The position numbers and the translations under genes were made by a program. Positions 11,973 to 44,279 of a stretch of 64,000 nt of DNA are shown here, in pieces (position 1 is the stretch's first letter; every line of letters begins with the position of its first letter). Below the pieces are notes generated by a model. That model made no database searches, was not told the origin of the DNA, and saw only the letters and a program-made list of their open reading frames with translations. The stretch comes from Mytilus trossulus (Eukaryota): positions 1 to 64,000 of the forward strand of contig NW_026963333.1 of the NCBI RefSeq assembly GCF_036588685.1, read 5' to 3'.

Positions 11973-12208
11973 TTATTTTCTTTTAATCATCATGATAGAC
12001 TTTTTTAGTGGCTTTGTATTTTGTCTCCATCGATACCAGTAATTACCAGCACCCTTTGTGTCATTGTACCTCCCATTCAAATTAGCATAATCACAACTAT
12101 TAAACCACCAACCAGCATGCCTTTCAACAGCACAATTACCGCTGTTCCTATCGTTATCTGAATCTTTCGTGGTAAATTTCATGCCATTACCATTATGTAA
12201 TCCATCAC
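11973..12208 (-). CDS. Terminal exon of the fibrinogen-related (FReD) gene, left-arm copy, convergent with the thrombospondin-like gene
   Basis: Mirror of 14703-14938; GDGLHNGNGMKFTTKDSDND...CA....GWWFNSC..ANLNG.Y...W......LKKSIMMIK is the fibrinogen C-terminal signature. Confidence 0.85.
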
Positions 12209-13703: not shown

Positions 13704-14938
13704 GAAATGATAATATACATTTGATTGCTGCTAATGGTGATCATGAACTAAGTGTGTATGTAGAAGACTTCAATGGCCTCCACGCTTATGCCAACTACTC
13801 ACACTTTACAATAGGTGACGAGAGTACGAAGTACCTGCTAGATATAACTGGATTTGTTGGTGATGCAGGTAACAAATTAAATGAACTACTGGGTGTCACA
13901 ATAAGAAATATATTTTGAGTTGAACCTTAAAAATTATGTATGAAGCCCGTCCATGTATACTCTTTTTACAGTATACATGTTTGCTTGGGATGACAATCAT
14001 ACATACTTTATAAATTGTTTTACATTTATATATAGGTTATATCTGCAAGTCTGAATTCTTTAAAAGACAAACACGTTAGAACGATCTAAATTAATGAAAT
14101 TATTGTCTCGCATGTTGCTTTTGGCGAAGATGTTTCAATAGTGACATATGGAATACATAATTTATCTAAATATTTGAAAATTTACACAGAAACAAAATAA
14201 TTTAAAACGTTTAAACCAGGACGGTCATATCAATTATGAATTAAGTGCAAGACATTTAGTCATTGGTTCGATACATCATCAAAAGTCAATTTTAAGCAGT
14301 ATTTGATTTTTGAAAATGAATTATACCACTTAAGAAAAGTACTAAATGGTTCAATTCGAAATCGTTACATCAAGTTGTCAGATTATTATATATAGATCAG
14401 TTCAAATTAATACGATAATGCGTAACTATTTTCATTTTCAACTCGTTTTTAGAAAATTGCATTTCCAAACAAAATGCCAAGGGATACTAGCTTTGTTCAG
14501 CAAATATATTTGCGAAGCACTGCATTGCCATATGTTGATTCAAATAATATATTATTTATTCGTAATAAATGAGGTTGTTTTTCCCTCAGGAAAACTTGAT
14601 CTTAAACCTCAGATTTCGATTATTACGGTGTTAAATCTAAAATCTATTGTATCCTTTCAATATTATTTGTTCTATTATACACTTATTTCGTTCTTTTTTT
14701 AGGTGATGGATTACATAATGGTAATGGCATGAAATTTACCACGAAAGATTCAGATAACGATAGGAACAGCGGTAATTGTGCTGTTGAAAGGCATGCTGGT
14801 TGGTGGTTTAATAGTTGTGATTATGCTAATTTGAATGGGAGGTACAATGACACAAAGGGTGCTGGTAATTACTGGTATCGATGGAGACAAAATACAAAGC
14901 CACTAAAAAAGTCTATCATGATGATTAAAAGAAAATAA
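13704..14938 (+). CDS. Last two exons of a fibrinogen C-terminal domain (FReD 3' half)
   Basis: Exon 13704-13868 (cag/ GNDNIHLIAANGDHELSVYVEDFNGLHAYANYSHFTIGDESTKYLLDITGFVGDA /gt; single copy, inside spacer 1) and exon 14703-14938 (TAA stop); the phase-1 junction is compatible. No upstream FReD exon on this strand precedes them. Confidence 0.9.
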
Positions 14939-20400: not shown

Positions 20401-22751
20401 TGCCAATGAGTCTATCTTAATCCATAGTCCAACGGAAAAACTGTTAATAGCAATAAATGCTTTTTAATACATCGATTGTTTTAAACAAAATAAGGAACAG
20501 TGAATATTTTTATCACTGTTGATTCATTATTATTCATGAGATACCACTTTTGTTGATTTTGTGGGTACGGGTGAACCATGCAATAAAATGTTAAATGAAG
20601 TACAGATTTTCTATAGGCTTGTTGAAGACTTTTGTAAAATCATGAAATCAAATATCCAAGTAAATTTTACTATGTCCTTAATCCATGGAAATTGGTACCC
20701 ATGAAAAAATAACTGACTCCACAGTAGTATACAATCAAGCCAGTTCAAAGTGTTGACTGAACATTTAAGTTAAAAAGCATGCAAAGTTAAAAAGGCGATG
20801 AAACTACTGATAAGCATCCTGTGTCTGTCATATAACCTTTGCCATCAGCACTTGATGTGATTTCAATTTTTTTAAATACTGATTTTATGTTTTAATCTTT
20901 CAATCTAATTTCCTACATACCAAATTTTTGATTTTTTTGTTAAAAGGCGAATTTTGGGTTTAAAAGAAATTAAGTTACAAAGTAGTTATAATTCAGATAT
21001 ATTTTTTTGGGGAAAATCCTGACAGTTTGTATACCTCAAGAATTAAATATTTCACATGTCAATTACAACAGAAGACATTATTTGTTATTATGCACTAAAA
21101 CCATAAGGACATGGAAATGAAATTCAATAATTTGAATACAAGGTTTTATATCTATTCTCACCTTTGATAAATGTCTAAACGAGTGATATTGGTAAGTACA
21201 ATATAATCATCCACTCCATCAAGATACAAAGCTTTATTGTCTCTGGGGAGGCACTGGACCTTCAGATCAGACCATAAAACTGATTCCTGGCCAAACTGGT
21301 ACACTCCAACACGACCTCCAGTTATACTGGTGTCATAGATGTCACCACTGTCAGCTAATAATGAATCTACATCATACAATTGGAATCTGAAATGATTATG
21401 AAAAATTATAACGTTTTGCTCTGTTTGGTTCTGGGTTTTGATACATATAGGAAGATGGGGTATGAGTGCCAATGAGACAACTCTCCATCCAAGTAACAGT
21501 TTATAAAAGTAAACCATTATAGGACAAGGTATGGCCTTCAACACAGAGCCTTGGCTCACACGGAATAGCAAGCTATAAAGGGCCCCAAAAATTACTAATG
21601 TAAAACCATTCAAACAGGAAAACCAACGGTCTAATCTATATAAAAACGAGAAACGAGAAACAAGTATGAACTACATAAACAGACGACAACTACATGTACT
21701 GTACATCAGATTTCTGACTAAGGACAGGTGCAAACATTTTGCAGCGGGATTAAATGTTTTAATGGTACCAAACCTTCTCCCTTATCTGAAACAATAATAT
21801 AACATCACAACATAAAAATACACGTAATCAATTATCAATTGGAAAGCTTAACTCAATCAAAAAACGTAAATTAACACACAATGAACGACAATAAATTTGT
21901 TCTGTGATACCTGAATGCAAATACATGGTAAATACAAATTATAAGGGATAAATAATTAAGGTCAAAAGTAAAAAAAAACAGGTTTAAACAAAGTAAAAGT
22001 ATGATACCACTGTGAAATGTTAACAATTTTTTGAAAATCATCACTTTTGAAAAAACCTGTGTCATATTATACACAGGTAAATGAAGCCTGCATTTGAAAG
22101 AAATCACCCAAGTGTTATCATTTTTTTTAATTTACATTTCATTTAAATGTACTAAAAGTTGCACATCAATTGTCCACAATAATTAAAGCATAAAAGTAAA
22201 ATCGTCTTCTAGTTCTCCAAAATTAAACCCAACTAAGCAGGCAAATTGGATATATTTATCGATATTTATTACCTCTTTTTCCTTCCAGTGGTGTCAATAA
22301 AGCATAACAAGAGGTTGCAGCCAATATAGTATTCAAAGTATAGTCCAACTGTGACATGCATTAAGTAAGGTATGAAATATTGTAGAAATAAATTTGTGAT
22401 ATAAATACCCATAAATATATATCCATCAAATACTGATGAAAGTGCTGACATACAATGTAGTCAGTATTGAAGTTGCATAAAGAATGAACCTATCATTTCA
22501 ACAATCCCATTTTATAGATATAAAAATATCTGTAGATGTCTTGGTGTTCCGTTTTAAATCTATACTTTAGTTATCTACCTGATCTTATTTAAATCTGTAT
22601 AATGCCATAGGAACCATTTATATGATGTGTAATTACTCCATCTTGTCATGTTACCATCCTGCCATAGTACTGTAACCTGGTTCACTGTTGTACTACTGTG
22701 CCATAGAGCATAAGCTAATGTTTGTCCAGGACCAGTATTGGAGTTCACTAC
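17485..22751 (-). pseudogene. Inverted partial duplicate of the last seven exons of the thrombospondin-like gene
   Basis: Mirror of 4158-9426. It lacks all upstream exons and carries a K->E change (LKDKG vs LKDEG). Confidence 0.85.
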
Positions 22752-22898
22752 CTATTTGTAAAGAAATATGGACACATTTAAATTAAATGATATGGACAAT
22801 AATCATAGTTTCAAAAAGTACTTATTAAATTACAAAAGTCCAATAAATAATACTTAAAAACATATGTTATCCGAAAGTATAAGTTGAACATGTTGAAA

Positions 22899-23830
22899 AA
22901 CCATTTTGAAAATGATGATTTTTTTTGGTAAATTGGGTATAATATATTAATATTGTTAAAATGTTTATTGTCATTAATAACAGAATATTCAAAAATTATC
23001 CAGCAGTTTCTCTAATAGTTATAAATGTCAAAACAATTGCAATCAAGTTTGAACTATTAACGTGATATGAGCCTTAGCTACATTCTAATAGGGCACATTT
23101 ATTTTAAATATATAACTGCTTGGAATGAGATATTAACAAATCGTTTAAATACCCAAATGACTTCCTTGATCCCATGAGATATTCGTACCGACATTTTGAG
23201 TGTTCCTGTGATATTTCAAATCACAATAACAAACAAGACCATCCATTCTTTAAGGTGGATTGGGGCTATTTGACTGCACATAATTTCACGCATGAATTAC
23301 AATGCACACGAGCAGTATGCTATAGCGTTTGTACAATTAGTACAAGTACAATGTTCCTTATGTACAAAAAGTTAAAATTTCAACAGAACAGAAGTCTCTT
23401 CAATAAATACATACAGAGTTATAATATTTTACAATTTTCTATGCATGGGGGTCTTTGAATGACATTATATGAACAACAAATGTTATTAAAAATGGATGGC
23501 CATTGAAAGGGATACAGAAATTACCAATAACCTTATTAAAAACGTTTTGTGTGATATCAGCACTGTTCCTTCTCTTTTAAAGTTCGTCAAACTAGGACGT
23601 TTATGAATAAATATTCGAACACATTTAAGGAGAAACAAAAAAAAAAGCACAGAGAGTGATTTCATTTTAAATAACTTACATTTGAGACAGTTGAGAAGTT
23701 AATCAAATACGCATTGTTCAATTAATACCAATTGGACAATAACTCATACTATCTAAGGTTACATATTGTTGTTTTTTATCGGTATTATATGGTTTCTGGA
23801 TGTTCGGAATTTTACTAACAATCATACAAA
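22899..23830 (-). pseudogene. Truncated paralogue (copy 0) of the secreted-precursor gene: upstream region and ATG only
   Basis: accattttgaaaatga...aaattg.gtataatatat at 22900-22950 matches the start-codon context at 28546, 36471 and 42276. Upstream homology continues (e.g. cttccttgatcccatg, gtgtgatatca, caatcataca). ATG at 22904-22902; the coding sequence is replaced by the palindrome arm. Confidence 0.8.
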
Positions 23831-24986
23831 ACATACCAATAAACAAAATCCTAACCGTTAAAAGTGTCAGACCACCATTTCCCTCCAATTTAGAACGTAT
23901 GTGAAAGTAGTCCTACTCTAACACAAAATAATGCTTTTGATGTCATTGTTTACTAACACTAGCCAACAAATATGCAGAAATGAAACTTTTGGTGAAAGGG
24001 AGATATGTTTAGACTCTTTTGAGCAAACATTCACTTGTCTTTGAGATTGCAATAAGAAATTAGGATTTATGCACTATATAGTCCACTAATTTAAGATTTC
24101 CAGAAAACCAGTTATTTTGGTAGTACCTGTATTTTCAAGATCAGAATTTTCTTATAAGACTTTAACCATTGGTTAAAAATTGGCATGTAGAAAGGTGATA
24201 CATGTACAATTTAAGATATACCTGATTTCTTTGAAGTTAAACTTAAGGTAAAATATTTAGAAAGCTGTGAAAATTGGCAAAATTTTATTGAATAGATAGG
24301 AATTTTCAATTGGTTGTCTGACACCTAACGCGAAATGAAACGACAATGCAAAAGGTATGTTATTCATTTCTATCATGTAAAGGTGACCCATTAGAACAGG
24401 CTAAACAATGTTGTGGCTAAATTTTATATTGAAAGTAAAGGTGGCTAGTTAAGAAAACTAATGTACAGCTTAATAGCTTGATGCTATCCTTATGTTTTTG
24501 ATGAACATAACTTTTTTGCAAAATGAAAACGCAATTATACCGTTCACTAAAAGTACTGATATAAATGGATTTTCGATTATATTTTGTAACAAAATAACAC
24601 AATAGTTTCCAATTTATTCAATCTAAATGGACAAATGTTTGTTCTTAAAAAAAATATTTAAATTACACCATTGGTTCATTTAAGATTACAAGGAGCTTAA
24701 GCTTACAACTATTTATTTAACAGTCAGTATATTGGTATGATTAACATACAATATTACATTTCTATGTCTAAATTTTAAATATCAAAACAATTAATTTAGT
24801 TAGCCATTAAATTCATTTATAACTATACATTATTTAACTTTAAGTTAGTTAGTTTCAACAGGACATATAGACACATGCGCTTTAAACTTTTTAAATTAAG
24901 AATTAGAATAAAACATTGACTGCAAAACACCACAAAAAGGTTATATATAGCATTTTTCAGTTAAATAAGTATAATTATACCTTTAC

Positions 24987-27900
24987 TTGTAATAACGGGT
25001 TGTCGGTGTATTTTTACTTTACGTTGTCTCCATGGATATGGTGAAGGCAGACCTAAATTGAAGAAACATAATATGAAAGATTTCAATGAACATTTTATTC
25101 TATAAAACTTTGCCACTATTTACAGTCCACTAACACAGATTCACTAATACAATATTTAAAGTATACAAACTCCTAGGTTTACAAAACTGAAGATGTGTTA
25201 AACCCTTACCTAAACTCTCATGTATATACAAATATTTGGTTTGTGTGTATGGTGGAACCTGTTAAAAACTTATTTCAATCGTGACAGCAAAGCACATTTT
25301 TTCTGAACCATACTTAACAGTCTGAATTTGTACTTATATATGGAAGTGTTTAACGACCTTGACTGGCTTTTCAGCCCTCGCATGGTCGGCTCGGTGCCCG
25401 AAGGCGTTTGGTGAGCTTTAAATATTCTGGTGCCATGGGTCAGGAACAAGTAGTGGAGGTCGCAGTATGGAGGCCGCCATCTTGGTTGTGGTGAGTAGGT
25501 TTTGGTTTGTTTACTATTTTGGTCTTTATTCTTCACAACGGCTGCTTTCAGGGCCAGTTTGGTCAGCTTGACAGTCCGCTAGCCTCGATGATGGAGTACT
25601 GGTAGATGAATATGTACTTGACAAGCTCTTAACCATTTTATACGAGTCTGAACCATGCTCGACCTAGTCTGAACCATACTCAGCCTAGTCTGAACCATAC
25701 TCAGCCTAGTCTGAACCATACTCAGCCTAGTCTGAACCATACTCGACCAAGTCTTAACCAACCTAGATATATTCTTTGTATCTATCAACTGAATTGTATC
25801 AATTTAGGAAATATTTTTAATAAAAATGAAAGTTTAACAACAACTTGATATTAAAAATGTATTCCTTTTTTGTGTAATCAGTAAATTATTACTACAAACC
25901 AGTAAAAGTCTGAAATGGCCTATATCTGTACAAGACTGTTGTCTTATTGGCAATCATACCACATCTTCTTTTTTATATCAATATAGTATTGAAATTAACG
26001 TTTTACAATAATTAATTATAATATAACTTCAACACAATATTATTCGTAACATAGTATGCTAGTGACCTAATACGGTATATATGGGGTCAGTAAATTCCAT
26101 ATGGGGTGAGAGGGATTACGTCACTAGCACACTATGTAACGAATTTATCTTACCGACTATCCTAACGTATAAAATTAAGACTAGTGACCTATCAAAATGA
26201 GCAAGTCTTCAATACATCTAGCATTAACATGATGCCAACAATGACAACTTGTTATATTTAAATGTGTTTTCTGAATTAATTTTACTTTATCGTCACTTTC
26301 TCCGTCTGTGGAAACCTTAAAGATTACTGTTTTGCTTTTCTAAAGGGATGTAACACCACTACTAACCGTGTATGAAATAAGCCCCGCCCCCTACTACCTT
26401 ATAAGGAATATAAAGGGACGTAATTACACTACTAACCGTGTATGGAATAAGCCCCGCCTCCCAACTAACCTAATATTGAATATACACGGTCTCCACGAGG
26501 GCGCTCTTTACCAATCAAATTCCTAGAAATGTATAGGAGGTAAGATAATTATCAATACTTACATAATAATATATATCAACTTTAAAATACAAGTAAAACA
26601 AGCTGATCAAATAATCTAAAAATTGAATTGACATATATTTTCAATATTATTCAAAATTTTATGAATATTTCTTAAGTATTTTATGCCAATTTGACTATTT
26701 TCACCATAAACTTAAGCCTAATAAAGATTAATGTTGTCAGTTGGCTTTAGATAATAATGCAGTGAATTTTATTCATAAATATTTATATAAAATAGTATAG
26801 AACACAACTTAATATATTTTTTTAAAATGAGACCTCAATTGTTTTGTTTTATCAAACCAAGAATTTAATATAATCATGATAATATAATTTCCATAGCGAT
26901 CCTTTATAACCTTTTTAAAAACGGAATTCTGTTCCAAAGTAACAGTAAAAATTTATTTCAATTGATTCAAGTATTTTTTGTCAAATTAGAGACATGGCAT
27001 TCATTAAGCACTTTAATATGGTCTAAATGTCTCAGTTCATGTGTGTTTTAGGTAAAAAAAAAAAGCCCTATTTTCTTAAATTCGTGTATTACTTATCTTG
27101 TATATTCGAAATGACTTGTATTTTCAGTTAAACAGGATATTGCAATTTTGAAGAAAAAAAATATTTAGAATTTAATACCTCTGACCAGGTGTGATCTTAT
27201 TTATGAGTTTGCCCCAAGCAGAGGTTATATTTTATATTTCACCACTACTCGAAAAACAATTTTATTTATTTATTTTATTTGATCCCTTTTTGATATAAAT
27301 TATATATAATATATTGTTTTTTTAATCCTAAATATAATAATAGATGTATTTCCAATATAAGGTAAAACAATTTATAAACTTTGTTACAAAGAATTTTATT
27401 TTAACAGTTAAGAAAGTTTTTGGTCGAGTATGGTTCAGACTGATCGAGTTCTGTTCAGACCTTTGGTTAAGTATGGGTTAGACTGGAAAAAGGTCGAGTA
27501 CAAATCAAGAATGAATTAAGACTGTTTCGGTCAAGTAATAGTTCAGACTATTTTCAACGGCAAAGATAAGGGTCAGGTACAAATCAGTAAAGCCAAGTAT
27601 GGTTCAGACTGGGGTCGAGTATTGTCAAGTAAAAGTCAGACCAATTCAGACTGGTTGAGTACAAATCAGTACAGTCGAGTAAAGATATAGGCAATTTCAG
27701 ACTTTAATGGATTGTAGTGTTTGTGTTATACATATTCATGTACACATTCACGGTTCAACAATAAATCCATACATGTATTGTGGCATGTCACAAGATCATA
27801 TTTTTCTTTAACTGTGAATGTTGTCTTCATATTACATCATTTGGATGTTCGATGTATACTGTTTTATATTTCAGTCTAAGACAAAAGATTAATATTATGT

Positions 27901-28546
27901 AATATAAATCCCCGTTACTTCCGCTTTGTTTTTTTATACTTGTTTTTCTCTGCTTCGTTTCGATTTGTTGAGTTTTGCCATTTTCAATTTATTTATAAAG
28001 TGTGTTGTAATATGACATCACTAGTATACTGTCGAAGGTAATAAAAGAGGGAAGGGCGACCGTTAATAGTTATCAAAGGTACCAGGATTATCATTTTTAC
28101 GCCAGACGCAAGTTTCTTCTTCACAAGACTCACCAGTTTCATGTTTAACCCCACAAAATAATGTATGTGCCGGTCCCAAGCCAAGAGTCAGAAATTAAGA
28201 AGTTGCCGTATGTTGCTGTTTATCATATTGTATTACTTTTTTTCGTTTGAATTGTTTTACATTTGTCATTTCAGGTTTTGCTCAATGTTGTAGGCCATAC
28301 AATGACTTTTATTTGATATCTTTTATGTGACTATATCATTTGGTTTATGGTTGAGATTTGCCTTATTTGTAATTGTAATGCATCTTCTTTTTCATAGCTA
28401 AGTGAAAAGTTTTGTGATATTGTTAGATCAATAAATGTCTTACCCGGAAATATTCTCTTAGATCTATCGTCATGTTTTACATCAGCTGCAAATAAGTTAT
28501 CTGAGAGTACGACTAAACAGATAGTCAGAGCTACCACTAAAACCAT
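24987..28546 (-). CDS. Small secreted precursor, copy 1 (exons 1-2; final exon unresolved)
   Basis: Exon 1 28546-28444 (103 nt, MVLVVALTICLVVLSDNLFAADVKHDDRSKRIFP, donor gtaag); exon 2 25052-24987 (66 nt, GLPSPYPWRQRKVKIHRQPVIT). Exon sizes and phases are conserved with copies 2 and 3. Confidence 0.75.
25645..25760. repeat. 21-bp tandem repeat (~5 units)
   Basis: gtctgaaccatactcagccta repeated; degenerate reverse-complement versions (gagtatggttcagact) are scattered over 27420-27700. Confidence 0.9.
26042..26550. mobile_element. Non-autonomous element with a hairpin end and internal direct repeats
   Basis: 24-bp inverted pair ttcgtaacatagtatgctagtgac (~26043) / gtcactagcacactatgtaacgaa (~26120); ttatcttacc (~26145) / ggtaagataa (~26539); direct repeat cactactaaccgtgtatg.aataagccccgcc at ~26358 and ~26428. 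Confidence 0.55.
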
Positions 28547-31500
28547 TTTGAAAATGATAAATGTTCTTGAAAAATTGTGTATAATATATTAATATTGTTA
28601 AAATGATATTTGTCACTAATAACAGTAAATTCAAAAATTATACAGCACTTACTCTAATAGTTATAAATTTAAAAAATTCTGAAATTAAGTTTGATTTATT
28701 GAACTAAATATAATCCTTTGTAACATTCTAAAAGGGCATACTTATTTTAATATTATACATATATATCACATTATATTTACTTATCGACATTTTGGATGTT
28801 CTTTTGGAATTTCAAATCCCGATAACAAACTGAATTGGGCAGGATACCCCAATTGCATAAGTGTCCATATAAAAAACACTTTATTGTCGGCTTCACGAAC
28901 TTTTTTTCTGTGAAACGAAATCTGACTACAAAGTTCCTGTGAAACATCACTGGTTGTTTGAAGAAGTTTTGGATAATAAAATATTCTTTAAGTACATTAA
29001 ATTTCCATCTTTTTGTGCAATAGTAAAATAAAATATCTCTTTAACCCTTACACTAGTACTTATTTCAAACTTTAACAGAAATCAAATGAATTATTCTATA
29101 AAGTTGTTTGATAAAAGATAATGTTTAAATCAAATTAGAAAAATGACGCTAATCAAACAACAATCAATCAGAAAGATATAAAGTTTTTAAGTAAGGGGTG
29201 ACACTTGCTTCGGAAGAGACATCCTGACGAACACTAAAAGTTCATAAACTGAATTCATTAAAATGTTTGATATTTTTTTATCAACATATTTTTATTTCTT
29301 TAAAAGGATATTTAAGTGCCGAATTTGTGGTGTTAATCTATCTTAATTTATACGATATTCCTGAGTTTGCATTTTATTTCATTGAGGGTTTCATTAAAGG
29401 TATAAATTGAAGGATTTTGATAGATACTGGTAGAAATTTTTGTTACAGTATTGGTTAATATTGTGATGTTTGCTTTTGATTAGTCTTCCCATATTCCAGA
29501 ATAAAGGGATTTGTCTTGTGAGTTTTTTTTTATAAACCCTATGTTTGTCCCTTCAGAGAGTTTTAAAAAGAGAAGGATTGAGATCTTTTATAAATCTCAT
29601 ACAAAGATATTTGTTAAACATTTGTTTGTTTTTATTCTGATCGAGATTGTGACACGACGATGATTGCTGACAATTTTACCTATTATGTCTTTTTTGTTCA
29701 CGCATAATTATTGATATATGGAATTTGATGCGACTGTCATACATATGAGAGGTTTAGCGCTATAAAAATAGGTTCAATCCACCGTTTATACATTTTAAAA
29801 TGCCTGTACCAATTCAGTAATATTACAGTTTTTGTCCATTCGTTTGATGTGTTTTGTCATTTGATTTTGCCATTTGACTTTCCGTTTTGAAATTTCCTCG
29901 GAGTTCATTTTTTGTGATTTTCCCTTTTAATTTTTTCCGACCGATAACATACTTATATTGTATATGTATACACCTCTTTAACTGATAAGCAAACCATAAG
30001 TGGAAGCAGAAAGGATACAACAAGGTTGACCAGTCAATACATAAAGCAATCAACGGAATACCGTATTCTTTGTAAATAACAAACTTTTTTTTATAGTGTT
30101 GATGCCTCGAAAATTTGAAGCTCCATTTTTCTATTTTCTTTTTTAGATTCGTCATGTGTTGCCATATGTTAATAATTGTCCAATTTTTTTTTCTTTACAT
30201 ATTTTTTTGGGTACTCGGATTATTAAAGCGTTTGTACAATAAGTACATGTACAAGTAAAATGTTCCTTGGTTACACAATGATAGGTTTAACTCGGGTGAA
30301 ATTACAACAGAACAGAAGTCCCTCATTTAAATACATACATAACTACGTTATTTTGCAAATTTAAATGCATTGGGGTCTTTGCACGAATTTGAATGGTAAA
30401 AATGTTATGAAATGTAGATGGCCATAGAAAAGGGAGCAGATATTACCAATGATCCCAATAAAACAGTTTTGTGTGATATCAACACTTTCCCAACACTTCT
30501 AACGTTTGTCAAACAAGAAACAAAGACAAAAATTGTTAAAGGAGAAACAAAAACTAATGCATAAAGTTTATGTCACATTAAATATATTATATTTGAGATA
30601 GGACGTTTATCAAATACTTATAAGTCAATTAATACCAACTGGTTAATTACTCATAGTATTGAAGGTTAGCTATTTATGTTTTCATTTTGCATTAGTTGGT
30701 CTCTGGAGGTTGGATAATTACTGACAACCATACAAAATCTACCCATTTCAATACATAAAATAATCAAGATTGTGCATGTATAGAGCGAGACACTCACCCG
30801 GTCGATCTGCCCTGCTTTGGAGTTCATTTTTCTCAGATTATGTTTGTTACCTTTATTTATATAGTCTCTATTTTAAAAATTGAACACCACTTTACTACCA
30901 AAGGTTTAATTTATTTGGCGCTAGTTATAAAGAAAGCACATTGTTCATTCTATATATGCAGTTATTAAAGACTAAAAAAATGAAAAACGCTAGATATAAT
31001 TTTTATTCTTAGGGCAAATATTTATATTAGTTAAATATAATGCGACAGAATATGCTTCAATCCTTATCTGACAATGAACATTTTGAATTCATATTTCAGT
31101 GTATAAAGTGTACTAGCTTCATTTTTTGGTATTTTTTCTATCGAACTGATTTTTAAAATTAATTGTAAGAAATAATAGGGTTGTCTGGGAGGGTAATCAA
31201 TTACGAATACATAGAATAAACGTGATAACAATAGGCAAATATGAATGTAGAAAGAACCAATTATAATGAGAGAAGTAAATGCTAGATCCTTTTCGACCGT
31301 TAATATTTTATTTACATACCAGTACAATTTTGTTCGTAAGACTGATCACCACAACCACAGTCACCGTATCCATCACATCTCCAATTAATTGCTATACATT
31401 TTCCAGTTTTCATACATTTTAATGTGTCGGTTGTGGATCAGTTAATATCTGAAAATGTAATTTCTTATTTCGTATTGTTTCTGGTCTGATGTTAATGACT

Positions 31501-33099
31501 AAAATCGTTGAAACGGGAGTAGAAGATTAAAGACCAGAAAGTCTTTTTCATTCTAAAAGTGTTTTTCTTATTAAAATTTTGTTTCAAAGTATTCCTGATT
31601 TTGGGAACAAAATATAATAAAAGAAATATGGGCCGTTACCTCGTTTTGTCGCTTTTGTAACTTCAATATTTCATGTTTTTCGCCTGATTGACGATTATTT
31701 TGTTATATCAAATAACGGTTATTTAGATAATTTCAAAGTCAGATTCAAATGTTTTTTTCTGACATAAAAAAAATATTCAAAATTATTTAATAATGACTCT
31801 ACAACATATTTTCTAATTTGGTTAATTTTGTGAATTGAGTTTCATCCTTTCTCGCCGAAAAATAATGCCAGAGTGAACTATTTTCATTGTTAAAAATATC
31901 TGCCAGTGATTTCTTTTAAACAGAATTACAAGTCAGAGGGGAATTTGCACACATTGAAATAAGACAAAAAAGTATACATCACCGACCTTTTAAAAGAATA
32001 CATTTACCAGTTATTTTAGGTGTATATTACTGTTAGTTTTTAAAAAATCCTTAGAACAATGGCTCTGACGTCAAAGTTATAAATTTTGATATTTAAAAGA
32101 GTTTCATAAATATCACATATAGGAAATTTGACACATAAAACAACTTGTTTTCAATAACAAAAAACACCCATTATCTGGACACTTAGTGAAGAAAAAGGGG
32201 AGTGTACATGTATCTTTGAATACATATTGCTTTTTCTGTAAATGAAGCTTGTACTGTTGTAACGTGTACATTTAACTTCGAACTTCAAATCGCTTGCAGT
32301 TATGTCCTTACAAAATCATAATTAGGAAAAGGAATATTGTGTAACCAGAACATAAAGTTTTAAAGAACTTGTTGTGGTAGACATGAGTTTACTCTTCGAA
32401 TGTTATAACATAAAAAGTGATAAGAAACTATGAAGCAGGTGACTTCTGACTTCTCACAAGTGCCCTTTTTCGTGACATTACGGTAGATTTTAGAAAGCGA
32501 CGAATTTTTCAACCCCGAGAAGAAAAATATGACCATTTTGAATGATCTGATGACCACATCAGTTACTTATATAAAGATTCAAGGATCAACAATCTATTTA
32601 CGGAAGGCACTCACCACAGAAATTTGTGGGTAGTGGTGTTAAACAAAAGCTGTACTTGTTTGAAATAACCCTTCCCTGGACAGAAACTGTCATTTCCTCG
32701 TGCTCATTAACAATTCCATATATCGGCAACCCGTCATGGCCCTAGGACGATAGATGTATCTGTCTAAGTCGGACTTCTTATTACTGTAATTTTAAAGAGG
32801 CGATACAAAGACACTACGGTTCATTCAGGTTGATCTGAACAGCAGAATCGTCAAGACTACGAACTGATGTCAAACCGGCAATGTTGTCGACACCTCTGAA
32901 GAAATGGAGGGGAGGGCGACGAATGTTCCGACACTGAAAGTATAACCTCAGATATAATATATGTAGATGACAAGGGGGATATAATAGTTTGTCTGTTTGT
33001 CTTTTTATTTTTAGCCATGGAGTTGTCAGTTTATTTTCAATCTATGAGTATGACTATCCCTCTGGTATCTTTCATCCCTCGTTTGTCGATATTGCGCAC

Positions 33100-33600
33100 T
33101 GGTCTTTGCACATCATCGAGGTTGAAAGGACTATAATTGCCAAACAAAATCGATTTGCTTACCAATTTATGGTAAGGCACTAGAGGGAATTTTGATGAGA
33201 ACACCGGCCACCGTTGTCTGTGCGGTTCACTTACCATCCTATGTGAGTGACAGACCTAACACTTTTGTAGTCAAAACAGATAAATGTAACCAGGAAAGAA
33301 CTCATTGGGTGTTCTTTCATTTTCCTATCTCAAAACAGCCTGAGTTTTATACTCCCAAGGAGGAACACCATAGACATACCAGCAACATTTTAGAAATGTT
33401 CTCATCGTAAATCGACCCCTGTACTGTTTTTCTCGCTGTCCATTTCAACCCAACTTTTCGGAAATATGTGGATTGTACTGCGCCTATTACGTGAAAATGA
33501 GATGTCAGAGTATCAGGATGACAGATGTACTGAATGACGTTTCATCGGATGGCCTCGATGTTAACAACAGAAAACTCATTTCGTTATTTTCATTGAGATA
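33100..33600 (+). pseudogene. Decayed adenain-like cysteine protease of Polinton/Maverick (adintovirus) type
   Basis: Frameshifted pieces: VVCAVHLPSYVSDRPNTFVVKTDKCNQERTHWVFFHFP....EFY, then RNVLIVNRPLYCFSRCPFQPNFSEICGLYCAYYVKMRC...MTDVLNDVSSD.LDVNNRKL. These recall the NTD..HW / Q...S..CG.YC catalytic motifs. Confidence 0.7.
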
Positions 33601-34024
33601 TTTTGGTAAACAATCTATCAGCATTCGTGTAATATAGATCAAAATAAAACTTTTGCTTATATCATGTTTTTTTTTTCATTTACTAGTATGTCGTGTATGA
33701 ACAAAAACAAAAACAACTGTGATTCAGACAAAAATTCTCATAGATCAAGTGACACCGGTGTCTGGAGTGTCACCAATGGTAGTTTACCAATCAATATTAA
33801 AATCAGAGAACGAATTAACATTGAATATAGAGACATGCAAAACATTTATTATCACCGTTGGTTTTTCTTTTTTGTCAGTCAGTGAAATAAGTGTTTTGTG
33901 GATTTTTATTGACAAAATTACGATTGAAATGAGGTTTGGTATTTTGTTTAATGAAAAATATACAGGTCATGATATTGGAATGTGAGTTTTGAGTCTCATG
34001 ATGAATAGCAAGTCAGTTGGTCTG

Positions 34025-36471
34025 TTATATAGATAAAGGGGGAGATGCTGCTGCTGCTGTTATTGCTGCTTGTGCGACTGTNNNNNNNNNNNNNNNNNNN
34101 NNNNNNNNNNNNNNNNNNNNNNNNNNNNNNNNNNNNNNNNNNNNNNNNNNNNNNNNNNNNNNNNNNNNNNNNNNNNNNNNNNNNNNNNNNNNNNNNNNNN
34201 NNNNNNNNNNNNNNNNNNNNNNNNNNNNNNNNNNNNNTTAATATGTCTTCCAAGAGCATGTGTATACAGTCTCCTCTTATTGGTTTGGGTTTCCGCTAAG
34301 GATCCTACATCTAACAAACATATAATAAACACCCAGTGTTTTTAAACAGTAAGTGTGTAAATAGTTTCAAAGGAATTTTGTGATTTTATCAACTTCAATG
34401 ATACATAGCAATGATAGAGTTGATTAACAAAGCGTTGACACTTTTATGATAAGCAGAATTCAATATTTCAAATATCTTTATGTATTGTTAAAGAGACCTT
34501 ATGAAATGACCATACAAAAGATATGTTATTCATTTGTATAATGTAAAAGGTGACCAATAAAAACAGGTTATTCCAATAAACATACAGTGTTGTGGCACAA
34601 CTTTATATTGAAAGTAAAGATGACCAGTTAAGAAAAGTATGGGCAGCTTAATAGCTTGATGATATCGTTATATTTTCAATGAATATAACTTTTTTTTTAT
34701 AATCGGAAAACTCAATTATACCGTCCACAAATAGTTTTCAAAGGTACCAGGATTATAATTTAGTACGCCAGATGCGCGTTTCGTCACATAAGACTTATCA
34801 GTGACGCTCATAACAAAATATTTATAAAGCCAAAGAAGTACAAAGTTGTAGAGCATTGAGGATCCAAAATTCAAAAAAAGTTGTTCCAGATAAGCCTAAG
34901 GTAATCTTTGCCTGGGATAAGAAAATCCTTAGTTTTTCGAAAATTTTTGTAAACAGGAAATTTATAAAAATGACCACATTATTGATATTCATGTCAACAC
35001 CGAAGTGTTGACTACTGGGTTGGTGATACCCTCAGGGACGAAACGTCCACCAGCAGTGGCATCGACCCACCAGTAGTTTAAATAGTTATCAAAGGTACCA
35101 GGATTATAATTTAGTACGCCAGACGCGCGTTTCGTCTACATAAGACTCATCAGTGACGATCATATCAAAATATTTATAAAGCCAGACGGTAAAGAAGTTG
35201 TAGAGCATTGAGGATCCAAAATTTACAAAAGTTGTGCCAAATATGCATAAGATAATCTACACTGTATGCCTGGGATAAGAAAATCCTTAGTTTTTTGAAA
35301 ATTCAAAGTTTTGTTAACAGGAAATTTATTAAAATACCACATTATCGATATTCAGGTCAACAGCGTAGTGTTGACTACTGGGCTGTTGATACCCTGGGGT
35401 ACGAGACGTCCACCAGCAGTATTGATATAATTGTTTTTTTTTCGATTTTATTTTGTAACAAAATAATGCAATAGCTTTTAATCTATTTAATCCAAAATGG
35501 ATAAAGGTTTGCATTTAAAATCTTATTCAAATTATGAAAGTTAATAAAAAAAAAAGGAATGGTTCATTTGAAATGACAAAGAGCTTAATCCTACACATAT
35601 TTATTTAACAGCCATTTTCATTCATTAAAAAGTTATCAAAGGTAAGATTAACATTTAAGATTAAATTTCTTAGTCTAAATTTTAAATATCAAAACGAATT
35701 ATTTGGTTAGCCATTAGATTGATTGATAACTATACCTTGATATAACTTAAAATTAGTTAGTTTTAACAGGATATGTATGCCCTTTTAATCATTAAATTAA
35801 GAATTAAAATAAAACATTTACTGCAAAACAACACAGATACAAATAAATGGTCTCATAATTATGTATTTCATTCGACAGTTATGTAAGCATATAATCTTAC
35901 TTGCAATACTGGGCTCTCTGTTTACATGTTGTCTCCATGCATATGGTGAAGGCATACCTAAATTGAACAAACATTATATGAGTGATACCAATGAATTTCA
36001 TTGTATTCTATACATTTTTTTTATTACCTTTCGTCTATTAAACCATATTAACTAGTACAACAGTTAAAGGTATACAAATTCCTCTGTAAACAACACTGAT
36101 TCTGGCATCAAACCTTTTCATAAACTCTTCTAAAGATACAAAGATCTGATTTGTATGCATTTAATCAGGCTATTAATTTTCTCGTTTGAATTGTTTTATA
36201 TTTGTCATTTCCGTTTTTTCAATGATAAAGACCGTACGATAACTTTTAGTTGTTTAACTCTTTGTGACTATTTCATTTGGTTTCTTGTGGAGAGTAGTCC
36301 TATCTGCAGTTTTTTTTCATAGCCAAGTGGAAAGTTTTGTGATATTGTTATATCAATAAATGTCTAACCCGAAAAAGATCTCTCATCTCTATCGTCATGT
36401 TTAACATCAGCTGCAAATAAAGTATCTGAGAGTAGGATTATACAGATAGTCACAGCTACCACTGAAACCAT
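34025..36471 (-). CDS. Small secreted precursor, copy 2 (3 exons; low-complexity C-terminus hidden by N run 34082-34237)
   Basis: Exon 1 36471-36369 (MVSVVAVTICIILLSDTLFAADVKHDDRDERSFS); exon 2 35957-35901 (GMPSPYAWRQHVNREPSIA); exon 3 from 34310 or 34304 (..SLAETQTNKRRLYTHALGRHI-gap). The stop depends on frame: 34060-34062 (Gln frame), 34025-34027 (Ala/Thr frame) or 33996-33998 (Ser frame). Confidence 0.75.
34738..35425. repeat. Dispersed repeat family D, two tandem ~350-bp units inside intron 2 of copy 2
   Basis: aaaggtaccaggattataatttagtacgccagacgcgcgtttcgtctacataagactcatcagtgacg occurs at 34740 and 35091; other copies at ~28070, ~36860, ~42515, and inverted at ~44100-44260, ~45880, ~48160, ~48640-48900 and ~49300-49740. 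Confidence 0.85.
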
Positions 36472-38974
36472 TTTGAAAATGACAATTTTACTTGGTAAAT
36501 TGTGTTTTATATATTTATGTTAAAATATTCGTCCCTATAAATGACAGTAAATTACCATATTATCAAGCTGTTACTATAAAAATTAGAAATGCAAAACAAT
36601 GTTTCCATTAGGTTTGAAATATTCATCATTTAAACTAGATACCTGTACTACGCAGCAAACATTTTAATAGGGCATTCTTATTTTTAATATATAACTGCAT
36701 GGAATGAGATATTAAAAATTCGTTTGAATACCCAAAATGCTTCCTTGATCCCATGGGATCTACTTACCGACAGTTTGACTGTTCCTTTGATATTTCAAGT
36801 AACGATAACAAACTGGACAATCTTTTCTCTCGACTATATACCACAATTGCGTAAATAGTTATCGAAGGTACCAGGCTTATAAATTGATACGCCAGACGCG
36901 CGTTTAGTCTACATAAGACTCATCTGCGACGTGTATACAGTATAGAGTTGAAGAGCATTGAGGACCCAAATTTCATAAAAGTTGTTTCAAATTAAGAGGG
37001 ACGAAAGATACCAGAGGGAGAGTAAACCTCATAGATAGAAATAAAATTGACAACGCCATGGCTAAAAATAAAAAGACAAATAGACAAATAATAGTACAGA
37101 AGACACAACATAGTAAACTAAAGACTAAGCAACACTAACCCCACCAAAAACTTGGGGTGATCTCAGGTGCACCGGAAGGGTAAGTAGATCCTGCTCCACA
37201 TGTGGCAGCCGTCGTGTTGCTTATGTTATTACAAATACAAACAAATTAAAATAAGTGTCTTTATAATTAAACAACACTATATTGGTAGGCATATGAGATG
37301 CTTTACGGAAATATTATTTCCAATATCTGAAAATGTATTTTCTTATTTCGTATTGTTTCTCGTCTGATGTTAATGACTGAAATAGTTGAAACGGGAGTAG
37401 AAGATTAAAGACCAGAAAGCCTTTTTCATTCTAAAAGTGTTTTTCTTATTAAAATTTTGTTTCAAAGTATTCCTGATTTTGGGAACAAAATATGATAAAA
37501 TAAATTATGGGCCGTTACCACGTTTTGTCTCTTTTGTAACTTCAATATTTCATGTTTTTCGCCTGATTGACGATTATTTTGTTATATCAAAAAACGATTA
37601 TTTAGATAATTTCAAAGTCAGAACCAAATGTTTTTTCTGACACCAAAAAAAATATTCAAAATTATTTAATAATGACTCTACAACATATTTTCTAATTTGG
37701 TTAATTTTGTGAATTGAGTTTCATCCTTTCTCGCCGAAAAAAAAAATGCCAGAGTGAACTATTTTAATTGTTAAAAATATCTGCCAGTGATTTCTTTTAA
37801 ACAGAATTGCAAGTCAGAGTGAAATTTGCACACATTGAAATAAGACAAAAAAGTATACATCACCGACCTTTTAAAAAAATACCAGTTATTTAAGGTGTAT
37901 ATTACTGTTAGTTTTTAAAAAATCCTTAGAACAATGGCTCTGACGTCATAGTGATAAATTTTAATATCTAAAAGAGTGTCATAAATATCACATATAGGAA
38001 ATTTGACACATAAAACAACTTGTTTTCAATAACAAAAAACACCCATTATCTGGAATCTTAGTGAAGAAAAAAGGGGAGTGTACATGTATCTTTGAATACA
38101 TATTGCTTTTTCTGTAAATGAAGCTTGTACTGTTGTAACGTGTACATTTAACTTCGAACTTCAAATCGCTTGCAGTTATGTCCTTACAAAATCATAATTA
38201 GGAAAAGGAATATTGTGTAACCAGAACATAAAGTTTTAAAGAACTTGTTGTGGTAGACATGAGTTTACTCTTCGAATGTTATAACATAAAAAGTGATAAG
38301 AAACTATGAAGCAGGTGACTTCTGACTTCTCACAAGTGCCCTTTTTCGTGACATTACGGTAGATTTTAGAAAGCGACGAATTTTTCAACCCCGAGAAGAA
38401 AAATATGACCATTTTGAATGATCTGATGACCACATCAGTTACTTATATAAAGATTCAAGGATCAACAATCTATTTACGGAAGGCACTCACCACAGAAATT
38501 TGTGGGTAGTGGTGTTAAACAAAAGCTGTACTTGTTTGAAATAACCCTTCCCTGGACAGAAACTGTCATTTCCTCGTGCTCATTAACAATTCCATATATC
38601 GACAACCCGTCATGGCCCTAGGACGATAGATGTATCTGTCTAAGTCGGACTTCTTATTACTGTAATTTTAAAGAGGCGATACAAAGACACTACGGTTCAT
38701 TCAGGTTGATCTGAACAGCAGAATCGTCAAGACTACGAACTGATGTCAAACCGGCAATGTTGTCGACACCTCTGAAGAAATGGAGGGGAGGGCGACGAAT
38801 GTTCCGACACTGAAAGTATAACCTCAGATATAATATATGTAGATGACAAGGGGGATATAATAGTTTGTCTGTTTGTCTTTTTATTTTTAGCCATGGAGTT
38901 GTCAGTTTATTTTCAATCTATGAGTATGACTATCCCTCTGGTATCTTTCATCCCTCGTTTGTCGATATTGCGCA

Positions 38975-39475
38975 CTGGTCTTTGCACATCATCGAGGTTG
39001 AGAGGACTATAATTGCCAAAAAAAAATCGATTTGCTTACCAATTTATGGTAAGGCACTAGAGGGAATTTTGATGAGAACATCGGCCACCGTTGTCTGTGC
39101 GGATCACTTACCATCCTATGTGAGTGACAGACCTAACACTTTTGTAGTCAAAACAGACAAATGTAACCAGGAAAGAACTCATTGGGTGTTCTTTCGTTTT
39201 CCTATCTCAAAACAGCATGAGTTTTATACTCCCAAGTAAGGAACACCATAGACATACCAGCAACATTTTAGAAATGTTCTCGTCGTAAATCGACCTCTGT
39301 ACTGTTTTTCACGCTGTCCATTTCAACCCAACTTTTCGGAAATATGTGGATTGTACTGCGCCTATTACGTGAAAATGAGATGTCAGAGTATCAGGATGAC
39401 AGATGTACTGAATGACTTTTCATCGGATGGCCTCGATGTTAACGACAGAAAACTCATTGCGTTATTTTCATTGTG
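38975..39475 (+). pseudogene. Second copy of the decayed Polinton-type protease
   Basis: Duplicate of 33100-33600 (ADHLPSYV...THWVFF...CGLYCAYY...NDFSSDGLDVNDRKL). Confidence 0.7.
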
Positions 39476-39903
39476 ATATTTTGGTAAACAATCGATCAGC
39501 ATTCGTGTAATATAGATCAAAATAAAACTTTTGCTTATATCATGTTTTTTTTTCATTTACTAGTATGTCATGTATGTAAACAAAAACAAAAACAACTGTG
39601 ATTCAGACAAAAATTCTCATAGATCAAGTGACACCGGTGTCGGGAGTGTCACCAATGGTAGTTTACCAATCGATATTAAAATCAGAGAACGAATTAACAT
39701 TGAATATAGAGACATGCAAAACATTTATTGTCACCGTTGGTTTTTCTTTTTTGTTATTCAGTGAACTAAGTGTTTTGTGGATTTTTATTGACAAAATTAC
39801 GATTGAAATGAGGTTTGGTATTTTGTTTAATGAAAAATATACAGGTCATGATATTGGAATATGAGTTTTGAGTCTCATGTTGAATAGCAAGTCAGTTGGT
39901 CTG

Positions 39904-42276
39904 TTATATAGATAAAGGGGGAGATGCTGCTGCTACTGCTGTTGCTGTTGCTGTTGCGGCTGTTACTCCTATTGCTGCTGTTGCGGCTGTTGCTGNNNNN
40001 NNNNNNNNNNNNNNNNNNNNNNNNNNNNNNNNNNNNNNNNNNNNNNNNNNNNNNNNNNNNNNNNNNNNNNNNNNNNNNNNNNNNNNNNNNNNNNNNNNNN
40101 NNNNNNNNNNNNNNNNNNNNNNNNNNNNNNNNNNNNNNNNNNNNNNNNNNNNNNTATATGTCTTCCAAGAGCATGTGTATACAGTCTCCTCTTATTGGTT
40201 TGGGTTTCCGCTAAGGATCCTATATTAAAAAAACATATAATAAACACCCAGTTTTATTAAACAGTAAGTGTGTAAAAACCTTCATAGGAATTTTGTTTTT
40301 TTCAACTTCAATGATACATACCAATGATAAAGATGCCTAACATAGCGTTGACATTTTTATGGTAGGCAGAATGTAATATTTCAAAAATCATTATGTATGG
40401 TTAAAGAGACCATATGAAATGATAACAAAAGATATGGTATTCATTTGTTTTATGTAAAAGGTGACCAATTAAAACAGGTTATTCCAATAAATATTTCATT
40501 CGAAAGTTATGTAAGCATATAATCTTACTTGCAATACTGGGCTCTCGGTGTATTTCTACTACACGTTTTCTCCGTGCATATGGTGACGGCATACCTAAAT
40601 TGAACAAGCATTATATGAGTGATTTAAATGCATTTTATTTTATTCTATACATTTGTTTATAACCTTTTGTCTACTAAAAAGTAAAATCACAAAAATACTG
40701 AACTCAGAGGAAAATCAATACGGAAAGTCCATTATCACATGGCAAAATCAAATAACAAAACGCATCAAAAACGAATAGACAAGAACTGTCATATTCCTGT
40801 CTTGGTACAGGCATTTTCAAATGTAGAAAATGGTGGATTAAACCTGGTTCTATAGCGCTAATCCTCTCTCTTTAATAACATTCTCATCATGATGCGTTAA
40901 ATAAACAGTCACAATTAATAAAATAGTCAAAATATGGGTACATCAGTCATCATTGCATAACAATTTTAAAAGGGACAATTTAACAGAACACAAAAACATC
41001 TATCTACGAACACATGGATTGACTTGAGTGTCTGACGTCATAAAATTTGTATACGTCACATACATTTGTCGTTCAATGTGCATACAAACAGTTTTAAAAT
41101 TTACATAGGTAATGTAAGCATACAGAGTTAAAAAATCAAAAGTATGTAAGAACAAATTACAGAAATAACCGAGATTTTAACTAGTCCAAAAGTTATAGGT
41201 AGAATATATGAGAATAAAAAAATAGTTAATTCCACTACGCGATTGAATGATTTTGACGTTTATGGTTCAACGTATATAGTAATTCATAATAGAAATATAT
41301 CATAATGACATATAATAGACTATATAATACTGACGGGATCTTTTAAAGTACAGAGTCACGTAATAAGAACAAAAGCAGTACAAAGAGTCGCATATACAAA
41401 ACAAACCATCAAAAAATGAAAGCCAATACACACACATTAACGAGATGTATAAGTACCGAGCCATGTCAAACGGATATCACATAAAACCATTCAACAGTAA
41501 AAGTAATATTGATAATAGAACAAAGACAAATAAAAGAACAGTAAAACATATTGTAAAGATGATAAACAACATCAGTACGCAGAATCTATACATCAAGACC
41601 ATCGTGTATTATTTGAGAAGTTGATACGGAATATTTATCAACAAGGTCTTGGTACCTTCCGATGAACTTTTTTAGAAAAAGGACGAGACGTTCTTTGACA
41701 TACCCCTGGTTCATCAACTTTCTACTCAGACACTGATGACGTTTTACAAAGTCTGAGTAGGAGCTGCAAGCTCTTGAATATCGAATAAGTTGGAAAATAT
41801 ATATCCCATATGCAGGTGAAGCTGGTATGTTGCTACTAAGGTGGGGGACTAAAACATATTCACTAGTACAACAGTTAAATTATACAAATTCCTCTGTAAA
41901 CAACATCGATTCTGGCATCAAACCTTTTCATAAACACTTCTAAAGATATAAAGATCTTGTTTGTATGTATTTAATCAGGCTATTTATTTTCTAGTTGGAT
42001 TTTTTATATTTGTCTTTCCGTGTTTTAATGATAAAGATCGTACGATAACTTTTAGTTGTTAAACTCTTTGTGACTATTTCATTTGGTTTCTTGTGGAGAG
42101 TAGTTATATCTCTAGTTTTTTTCATATCCAAGTGGAACGTTTTGTGATATTGTTATATCAATAAATGTCTTACCCGAAAATGATTTCTCAACTGTATCGT
42201 CATGTTTAACAACAGCTGCAGATAAAATATCCGAGAGTAGGACTAAACAGATAGATACAGCTACCACTGAAACCAT
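39904..42276 (-). CDS. Small secreted precursor, copy 3 (3 exons; C-terminus hidden by N run 39996-40154)
   Basis: Exon 1 42276-42174 (MVSVVAVSICLVLLSDILSAAVVKHDDTVEKSFS); exon 2 40594-40529 (GMPSPYARRKRVVEIHREPSIA); exon 3 from 40219 (RSLAETQTNKRRLYTHALGRHI-gap). Stop at 39969-39971 (Gln frame) or 39904-39906 (Ala/Thr frame). Confidence 0.75.
40677..41845 (-). mobile_element. ~1.17-kb composite repeat insertion in intron 1 of copy 3
   Basis: Absent from the homologous intron of copy 2 (gtctattaaaccatatt is continuous at ~36033) and flanked by a short direct repeat actaaaa. Starts with family C; the other end resembles the retroelement sequence at ~44340-44410. Confidence 0.6.
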
Positions 42277-44279
42277 TTTGAAAATGATTTTTCTTGGTAA
42301 ATTGTGTATAATATATTTATATTGTGAAAATAATATTCGTCACTAATGACAGAAATTTCCATATTATCCAGCTGTTACTGTCAAACTTATAAATGTCAAA
42401 CAGTTTGGCCATTAGGTTTGAATTATTCATAATTTAAACTAGATACATATACTACGCAGCAAACATTTTTTATAGGGCATACTTATTTTAGATATATAAC
42501 TGCATGGAATGATTGTAGTTATCAAAGGTTCCATAATTATTAGTACACCAGACGTGCGTTTCGTCTACATAAGACTCTTCAGTGACGCTCATATCAAAAT
42601 ATTTATATTGCCAAACAAGTACAAAGTTGAAGAGCATTGAGTATCCAAAATTCTAGAAAAAGTTGTTTCAAATTAAGATGGTCGAAAGATACCAGAGGGA
42701 GAGTCAAACTCATAGATGGAAAATGAATTGACAACGCCATGGCTAAGAATTAAAAAGACAAACAGACAAAATAATAGTACAGAAGACACAACATAGAAAA
42801 CTTAAAACTAAGCAACACGAACCCCACCAAAAACTTTGGGAGGTCTCAGGTGCTCGGAAGTGTAAGCAAATCCTGTTCCACATGTGCCATCCGTCGTGTT
42901 GCTTGTGTTATGACAAATACATACAAATTAAAAATAAGTGTCTTAATAATTAGTTAACCTTTATTGGTAGGCATATGAGAAGCTTTACGGAAATAGTATT
43001 TCCAATAAAATCACATAAAACTAATTTATTTTGCAAATTTAAATGGATGATTGCATGGGCCTGAAAGATTTAAATAATCATAAAATGTAAATGTCCATAG
43101 CAAAGGCGGCATACATTAAGAATTATCTCATTATAAAATGTTGTGTGTTATCAGCAGTGCCTCTACTCTTTTAACATTCGTCAAACAAGGAACGATTATA
43201 CTTTAGATAACAAGTCAAACAGATTTCAGCAGAAATGATAAAAGAGCACAAAGTTGATGTTACATTAAAAATAATACATTTGATATAGGACGTTTACCAA
43301 ATACTAATTGGTCAATTATTCATAGTATGAAAGGTTACCTATTGTTGTTTTCATCCGCATTGTTTGGTCTCTTCAAGTTAGATAATTTTCTGACAATCAT
43401 ACACAATCTACCCATTTCATACATTAACAAATCCTTATCGTTCAAATATGTGTGCAGACTTAATCTTTCTGCAGCAATTTTGTTAAGACATTGCCTAGTT
43501 TTCTCTTTTACTGAGTGAAAATTGGAATACTAGATTGTGCATGCATAGCGGGAGTCGTTCAACAAGTCGAGCTGTTCTACTTTGGAGTTTATTTTCCCAG
43601 TTTTTGTTTGTTACCTGTATATATTTGGTCCGATATTTGGGAATTGAAGATTAGTTTACTTTAGTCACCTGAATTCATTCGGAGCTAGTTTTAAAGCAAA
43701 CACATGGTTCATTCTACATATGTGCATTAATTATATATTTGTATAAGAAATAAGCGATTTGAAAAACGCCAAATATGTTAATATTATCAGGATGAAAATT
43801 ATAAATTTGTTATATGTAATGCGACATGGCTTGCTTCAATCTTTTACTGACAATACAAATTTTTAAATATTTCAGATGTGCATATATTAAGGATAGACGC
43901 GTTTTTTGTTATAAAGTTCTTTCCAAATGGTTCTTGAACTTAATTGTATGACATTATATGGTTGTCCATGGTGATCAATAACAATTACAAAAGAGAAACG
44001 TTATTACAATAGGCCGAAATGAATACGGCCAAACTAAGTATCATTTTCTTATGATTGACATAACAATTTCGAACATTACCGATACTAAGTAACAAGGCTT
44101 TTCTTCCTCAGAAATAGATTACTTACGCTGTATTTGGCAAATCGTTTAGGAATTTTTGGTCCTTAATGCTCAATTTTTGATTCGAGCGTCACTGATGAGT
44201 CTTTTGTAGACAAAACTCGCGTCTGGCGTTAATACGAAGTTTCAATTCTGGTATCTATCATGAGTTTAATTGGAACACT

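Follow-up and report, generated by a model that had tools for sequence, protein, structure and literature searches.

Leader exons collinear with an LDL-A repeat protein gene in a tandem array of the mussel Mytilus trossulus

The described systems that lie closest to a tandem array of four leader-bearing units in the mussel Mytilus trossulus, found on contig NW_026963333.1 (NCBI RefSeq assembly GCF_036588685.1) in the 64,000 nucleotides from position 1 to 64,000 of the forward strand (the window), are the myticalins, the CRP-I peptides and the prohormone-4 (IDLSRF-type) precursors. Myticalins, linear cationic antimicrobial peptides of Mytilus, have in common with the array, as far as the excerpted accounts of the family go, clustering in tandem with numerous pseudogenes, cationic stretches rich in Pro, Arg and Trp, and dibasic sites; the excerpt of PMC12294457 gives their precursor as signal peptide, mature peptide, dibasic site and anionic tail, and that of PMC5577615 places the signal and the whole mature peptide in one exon, with a different signal consensus. 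The cysteine-rich peptides of Mytilus (CRP-I) likewise have a signal peptide, a short pro-region ending in KR, a multi-exon structure, and duplicates together with pseudogenes, while their mature peptide carries a C-C-CC-C-C array, their first coding exon has 17 codons and their last intron is in phase 2 (from the relevant part of PMC4558851). Prohormone-4, in the excerpts of PMC8398477 and PMC6891753, has one LDL-receptor class A (LDL-A) module, a long cysteine-free tail and a conserved IDLSRFYGHFNT or MSVDFSRL-type peptide.

As read in the assembled sequence, the array is collinear with an annotated LDL-A repeat protein of the same species, XP_063399693.1, and every unit is broken. We consider it probable that the four units derive from partial tandem duplication of an LDL-A protein gene at its 5' part and are likely decaying pseudogenes. 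Membership of the described families was rejected on the following grounds: (i) the prohormone-4 layout of signal peptide, basic sites and then LDL-A, as excerpted from PMC8398477 and PMC6891753, is common to XP_063399693.1 and the window unit, but on inspection the IDLSRF/VDFSRL-type motif is absent from XP_063399693.1 and from the window exons, and XP_063399693.1 has four modules; (ii) in comparison with the published description of myticalins, in the parts at hand, RSKR precedes the cationic segment, an anionic tail was not found and the gene runs into LDL-A exons, and the signal consensus and single-exon structure given in the excerpt of PMC5577615 are unmatched in the window copies; and (iii) the cysteine array, the 17-codon first exon and the phase-2 last intron ascribed to CRP-I in that part of PMC4558851 are all absent here.

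Collinear homology to an LDL-A repeat protein

The units begin at four ATGs on the minus strand, at 22904, 28546, 36471 and 42276 (copies 0, 1, 2 and 3, respectively), and similarity between them is far above chance (self-BLAST E 1e-35 to 0). An earlier reading made from the letters of the DNA (the sequence-only reading) had already recognized these tandem paralogues, the first as truncated, and its 103-nt signal-peptide exon and 57/66-nt second exon were borne out in size; it had missed an LDL-A exon at 31448-31320 and a 5-nt stub at 37326-37322. In all three longer copies coding exon 1 is 103 nt long with a phase-1 end at GT, the donor being GTAAGA in copies 1 and 3 and a weaker GTTAGA in copy 2, and coding exon 2 has AG and GT borders and phase-1 junctions. 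The basic motifs vary between copies much as that reading had listed them, with RSKR in exon 1 of copy 1, RRKR in exon 2 of copy 3 and KRR...G-R in a putative third exon (candidate exon 3) of copies 2 and 3. The N-terminus is hydrophobic (best 11-residue Kyte-Doolittle mean 3.3-3.4), and the leader-bearing product would be secreted.

A profile search with exon 1 (772 candidates, proteins of 71-2000 aa) returned a single match, XP_063399693.1 (E 1e-16), a 262-aa M. trossulus protein named 'LRP4-like' by automatic annotation, and the array can no longer be called an orphan. From its N-terminus the protein runs through a signal peptide, two 14-residue propeptide units with RSKR and a spacer into four LDL-A modules, which are followed by a basic tail. 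PF00057, matched four times, is the only Pfam family that scores above cut-off, and by inspection the six cysteines and the calcium cage are kept in all four. When it was compared by tblastn with exon 1 in the window, 28/34 residues were identical in copy 1 (82%), and 20/33 and 19/33 in the others, and the same search matched the LDL-A exon at 31437-31324, downstream on the same strand. The signal/propeptide exon and the first LDL-A exon are thus collinear and on the same strand in the window and in XP_063399693.1. Further short tblastn matches at 20571-20551, 21228-21211 and 56458-56432 were put down to chance, as they lack exon context and one lies inside another gene's exon. An internal AG in exon 1 (28485, 36410 and 42215 on the minus strand) would delimit a 42-nt exon, and this 3' part of exon 1 equals the 14-residue unit repeated in the propeptide of XP_063399693.1, a hint that tandem copies may exist elsewhere in M. 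trossulus too.

The LDL-A exon scores 27.4 bits against PF00057 (gathering cut-off, 24.1), and the 30 PDB sequences found with it at E<=0.001 are all LDL-A-bearing receptors. Its best counterpart in XP_063399693.1 is module 1 (25/38, 66%; 0/2000 shuffles score as high), compared with 15/36, 19/36 and 16/27 for modules 2-4. A match to a known family, which the sequence-only reading had named as evidence against itself, was therefore found at the level of the domain. A six-frame LDL-A profile scan of the window gave just one convincing match; the acceptor of this exon recurs at the equivalent place in the copy 3 unit, and the LDL-A exon therefore belongs to the repeated unit.

Between these two exons, the IHRQPV of copy 1 exon 2 resembles the IHRRPV of the XP_063399693.1 spacer (13/2000 shuffles score as high), the exon 2 sequences of the other two copies being not significantly similar to that spacer (96/2000 and 761/2000 shuffles as high). 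Reading exon 2 of XP_063399693.1 as a frameshifted form of the window exon 2 was rejected (213/300 and 170/300 shuffles equally good). The cationic Pro/Trp peptide that copy 1 had been expected to release is the counterpart of the spacer that separates the cleavage site from the first LDL-A module. What the window and XP_063399693.1 have in common is, in the same order, a signal peptide with propeptide, RSKR, the IHRxPV spacer motif and the first LDL-A module (66%); XP_063399693.1 differs in that the propeptide repeat occurs twice, four modules are intact and a basic tail follows them, and the window differs in having one dead module, one stub, a Pro/Trp-rich start of exon 2 and the candidate exon 3.

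The name 'LRP4-like' is misleading and reflects the modules only: XP_063399693.1 lacks the YWTD propeller and EGF families at the Pfam cut-off and, on inspection, a C-terminal hydrophobic helix, which sets it apart from LDLR/LRP receptors. The same modules recur, reshuffled and without the leader, in another M. trossulus protein, XP_063419022.1; the other seven of the nine matches in the search that gave it are generic LDL-A proteins (33-43% identity). With residues 1-120 of XP_063399693.1 as the query, only XP_063399693.1 itself was matched (29 candidates); in an atlas search residues 1-80 had no usable match and the whole protein led to generic LDL-A clusters. The exon-1 profile, applied to products of any length, had 0 matches among 1.84 billion cluster representatives, a weak blank, since XP_063399693.1 was likewise not returned. 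A literature search whose coverage mostly excluded subscription papers found no description of this LDL-A protein family.

Lesions, divergence and selection

No copy, as assembled, is able to make a protein of the XP_063399693.1 type, and where the sequence-only reading had counted intact copies, each proved to be broken at a different place (Table 1). The coding part of copy 0 is reduced to 6 nt, ATG included, and abuts an 8.87-kb inverted duplicate. Copy 1 lacks exon 3 and the LDL-A exon, its homology to the others being lost at 24335. In copy 2, besides the weak donor, RSKR and part of the upstream block are missing and the LDL-A exon is broken: (i) the codon for Cys1 is a TGA at 31440-31438, which leaves the six cysteines without an open frame, and no AG lies between this TGA and mid-module; (ii) a change from SDE to SYE turns the third Asp of the calcium cage (Asp, Asp, Asp, Glu) into Tyr; and (iii) there is one extra Cys. 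Such changes disable modules in proteins of the LDL-receptor family, according to the part of bioRxiv 2023.02.27.524103 concerned with them. In copy 3 RSKR is likewise gone, and just 5 nt of the LDL-A exon are left: a 4-nt microhomology joins this stub (37322-37326) to sequence upstream of copy 2. The deletion there also took from copy 2 the block that would match the upstream block at 43006-44044.

The duplicate that borders copy 0 consists of arms at 4011-12883 and 14028-22898 (8867/8873 identical, short spacer), of which the right one cuts the copy; a second such pair lies at 52026-57262 and 58764-64000 (5236/5237, short spacer), with inner arms at 57454-57946 and 58270-58762 (492/493). The two large inverted duplicates are either fold-back assembly artefacts or very recent rearrangements. 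Within intron 1 of copy 1, inverted arms about 1.7 kb apart (25687-27718) are likely a non-autonomous DNA transposon, which would help to explain the length of that intron. Triplet repeats of CAG/GCA type lie beside both N gaps (34046-34081 and 39925-39995) and are open on the minus strand in Ser/Asn-rich and Ala/Thr-rich frames.

The family had been described as fast-evolving, a description that the comparison of exons with their flanks does not sustain. Exon identity is 80-90% and flank identity 76-93% (Fisher p 0.12, 0.43 and 0.54), so the exons are not better conserved, and the ratio of nonsynonymous to synonymous substitution rates (dN/dS) in the three copy pairs is 1.48, 1.57 and 0.85, none of which differs from 1 (p 0.62, 0.38 and 0.78). 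Purifying selection was not detected in 53-56 codons with 5-6 synonymous differences. These results fit neutral decay, positive selection being still compatible with them at this number of codons. That exons 1 and 2 had diverged by frame-preserving indels only was upheld, no frameshifting indel being seen across the three longer copies; at the indel rate of the flanks the chance of this is 0.27, 0.03 and 0.08 for three non-independent pairs, which makes frame preservation weak evidence.

Several observations weigh against reading the units as broken remnants of an LDL-A gene: (i) none of the three longer copies has lost the frame or the splice sites of exons 1 and 2 (chance 0.03-0.27 per pair), and the selection tests, at the sample size just given, are low-powered; (ii) candidate exon 3, 64/65 identical between copies 2 and 3, is more alike than the preceding intron (128/148; p 0.0009), although its identity equals that of the region past the gap (298/306; p 0.49), and it may end in a stop beyond the gap; (iii) this exon is without a counterpart in XP_063399693.1 (1983/2000 shuffles as high); (iv) the link to LDL-A is drawn from one automatic gene model and the window's own exon order; and (v) XP_063399693.1 may be a joined model in its own right, and the 14 residues repeated in it equal the 42-nt 3' part of exon 1.

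Table 1. Elements of the four units, with coordinates in the window
Feature	Coordinates	Strand	Remark
Copy 0 remnant, ATG and one codon	22899..22904	-	remainder replaced by right arm of the 8.87-kb inverted duplicate
Copy 0 upstream block	22905..23872	-	homologous to other copies' upstream blocks; presumably promoter or 5' untranslated region
Copy 1-specific sequence	23873..24334	-	homology to other copies' intron 2 stops at 24335
Copy 1 coding exon 2, 66 nt	24987..25052	-	Pro/Trp/basic spacer
Copy 1 coding exon 1, 103 nt	28444..28546	-	predicted signal peptide, propeptide, RSKR
Copy 2 LDL-A exon, 129 nt	31320..31448	-	phase 1-1, AG/GT ends
Copy 2 intron-3 segment	31444..34081	.	97% identical to 37322-39963 of copy 3
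Copy 2 candidate exon 3	34238..34304	-	KRR...G-R motif; continues into N gap 34082-34237
Copy 2 coding exon 2, 57 nt	35901..35957	-	
Copy 2 coding exon 1, 103 nt	36369..36471	-	RSKR lost; weak GTTAGA donor
Copy 3 LDL-A exon stub	37322..37326	-	acceptor and 5 nt
Copy 3 candidate exon 3	40155..40219	-	continues into N gap 39996-40154
Copy 3 coding exon 2, 66 nt	40529..40594	-	contains RRKR
Copy 3 coding exon 1, 103 nt	42174..42276	-	RSKR lost
Copy 3 upstream block	42995..44044	-	homologous to 30328-31267 and 23393-23872

Elsewhere in the window, gene exons with thrombospondin type 3, TSP_C and laminin G-like domains lie at 2723-6779 (+) and are partly mirrored at 20128-21670 (-); Fibrinogen_C exons lie at 13598-14935 (+), mirrored at 11973-12305 (-), and at 53495-56864 (+). 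The second palindrome also holds a weak Ly6/uPAR- or activin-receptor-like exon, below cut-off, at 55021-55368. A 67-bp tandem array occupies 237-1518, and a retroelement fragment with zf-RVT lies at 1917-2567 (-). Assignment of the broken open reading frames at 33126-33634 and 38847-39473 (+) to an adenovirus-type cysteine protease of Polintons was unsupported by Pfam, PDB and viral-contig searches.

Rival readings of the locus

The locus might instead work in the animal, copy 0 being a complete LDL-A gene cut by an assembly artefact and the upstream units giving alternative 5' exons or extra propeptide repeats, which we regard as unlikely. Copy 0 is the most downstream unit, where 5' tandem duplication would leave the complete 3' end, and it is cut exactly by an arm 8867/8873 identical to 4011-12883; a second palindrome spans 52026-64000 (5236/5237), and two in one window suggest an artefact, although the arms of the first differ at 6 positions and the microhomology at the junction is short, so that a real rearrangement fits too. 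The phase 1 of all exons, the internal AG that would make a 42-nt exon out of the 14-residue repeat and the reshuffled LDL-A blocks of XP_063419022.1 also speak for a working locus; set against these, an AG that precedes the ATG by about 20 nt in the other copies is missing from copy 0, and no further LDL-A exon occurs within the 64-kb window.

It is rather improbable that one or more copies, chiefly copy 1, are expressed as short precursors that yield linear cationic or amidated antimicrobial or signalling peptides. Copy 1 retains the signal peptide, RSKR and consensus splice sites; read-through of exon 2 would give 64 residues, splicing to one of three pyrimidine-rich acceptors farther downstream would contribute 14, 22 or 2 codons more, and the segment after RSKR has a net charge of +5. 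The dN/dS of 2.4 past the signal peptide between copies 1 and 3 has the direction of positive selection, its significance not being shown, and mussels do produce Pro/Arg/Trp-rich linear peptides, according to the excerpt of PMC12294457. Against this, the exons are part of a unit bearing an LDL-A exon, the cleavage sites differ among copies, candidate exon 3 is interrupted by gaps, the precursor layout is reversed relative to myticalins, a literature search with five motifs found none of them, and the blank among 1.84 billion cluster representatives (any product length) points the same way, weakly, as XP_063399693.1 was not returned either. The idea of a secreted precursor with a basic site, put forward in the sequence-only reading, finds support in the hydrophobic N-terminus and the RSKR common to XP_063399693.1; the orphan antimicrobial or signalling family built on it does not, the sole protein match being an LDL-A repeat protein. 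In 24 public runs from 13 studies, 23 of them guessed to be RNA, 0.05-0.06 of the sampled words of 24900-28600 were present, to which we give no weight; exons alone would be expected to give about 0.03 and exons with read-through 0.053-0.059, and dispersed repeats are also present in this interval.

An improbable and speculative variant is that copy 1, having lost its LDL-A exons and kept its signal peptide and furin site, was recruited as a new gene releasing a short cationic Pro/Trp-rich peptide from the former spacer, a linear antimicrobial peptide born by 3' truncation of a tandem duplicate. As regards a transposon, no Pfam family was found for the three exon-1 copies, exon 2 of copy 1 or candidate exon 3 of copy 2, no transposon library being searched, and by self-BLAST the exons are confined to this array and not dispersed in the window.

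Probable origin of the array and the proposed parent protein

If the units are partial duplicates of an LDL-A protein gene, the ancestral unit would have comprised the upstream block, exon 1, exon 2 (the basic spacer), candidate exon 3 and the first LDL-A exon, with phase 1 joins. The array presumably arose by tandem duplication of this 5' part, after which deletions and point changes would have broken each unit at a different place, leaving pseudogenes. The parent protein would be secreted and cleaved after RSKR by a furin-type convertase and, as a soluble protein, would bind ligands in a calcium-dependent way, the acidic pockets of its LDL-A modules holding Lys/Arg patches on those ligands; binding of basic ligands through calcium-stabilized acidic pockets is the general mode of LDL-A modules in the part of PMC7609443 that treats it. 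From the established chemistry of the domain, its role may be that of a scavenger or decoy. In addition, the excerpt of PMC9168380 counts LDL-A proteins among the putative byssus proteins of scallops, and a matrix role is therefore possible.

To conclude, a false lead has been corrected, in that an apparent peptide family appears to be the leader sequence of a larger protein. Among mussel defence genes, tandem arrays that include pseudogenes are common. Should copy 1 be expressed, it would mean that linear cationic peptides of mussels can arise from a truncated duplicate. The parent protein itself would be soluble, with LDL-A modules only and a cleavable pro-region, and is so far just automatically annotated and misnamed.

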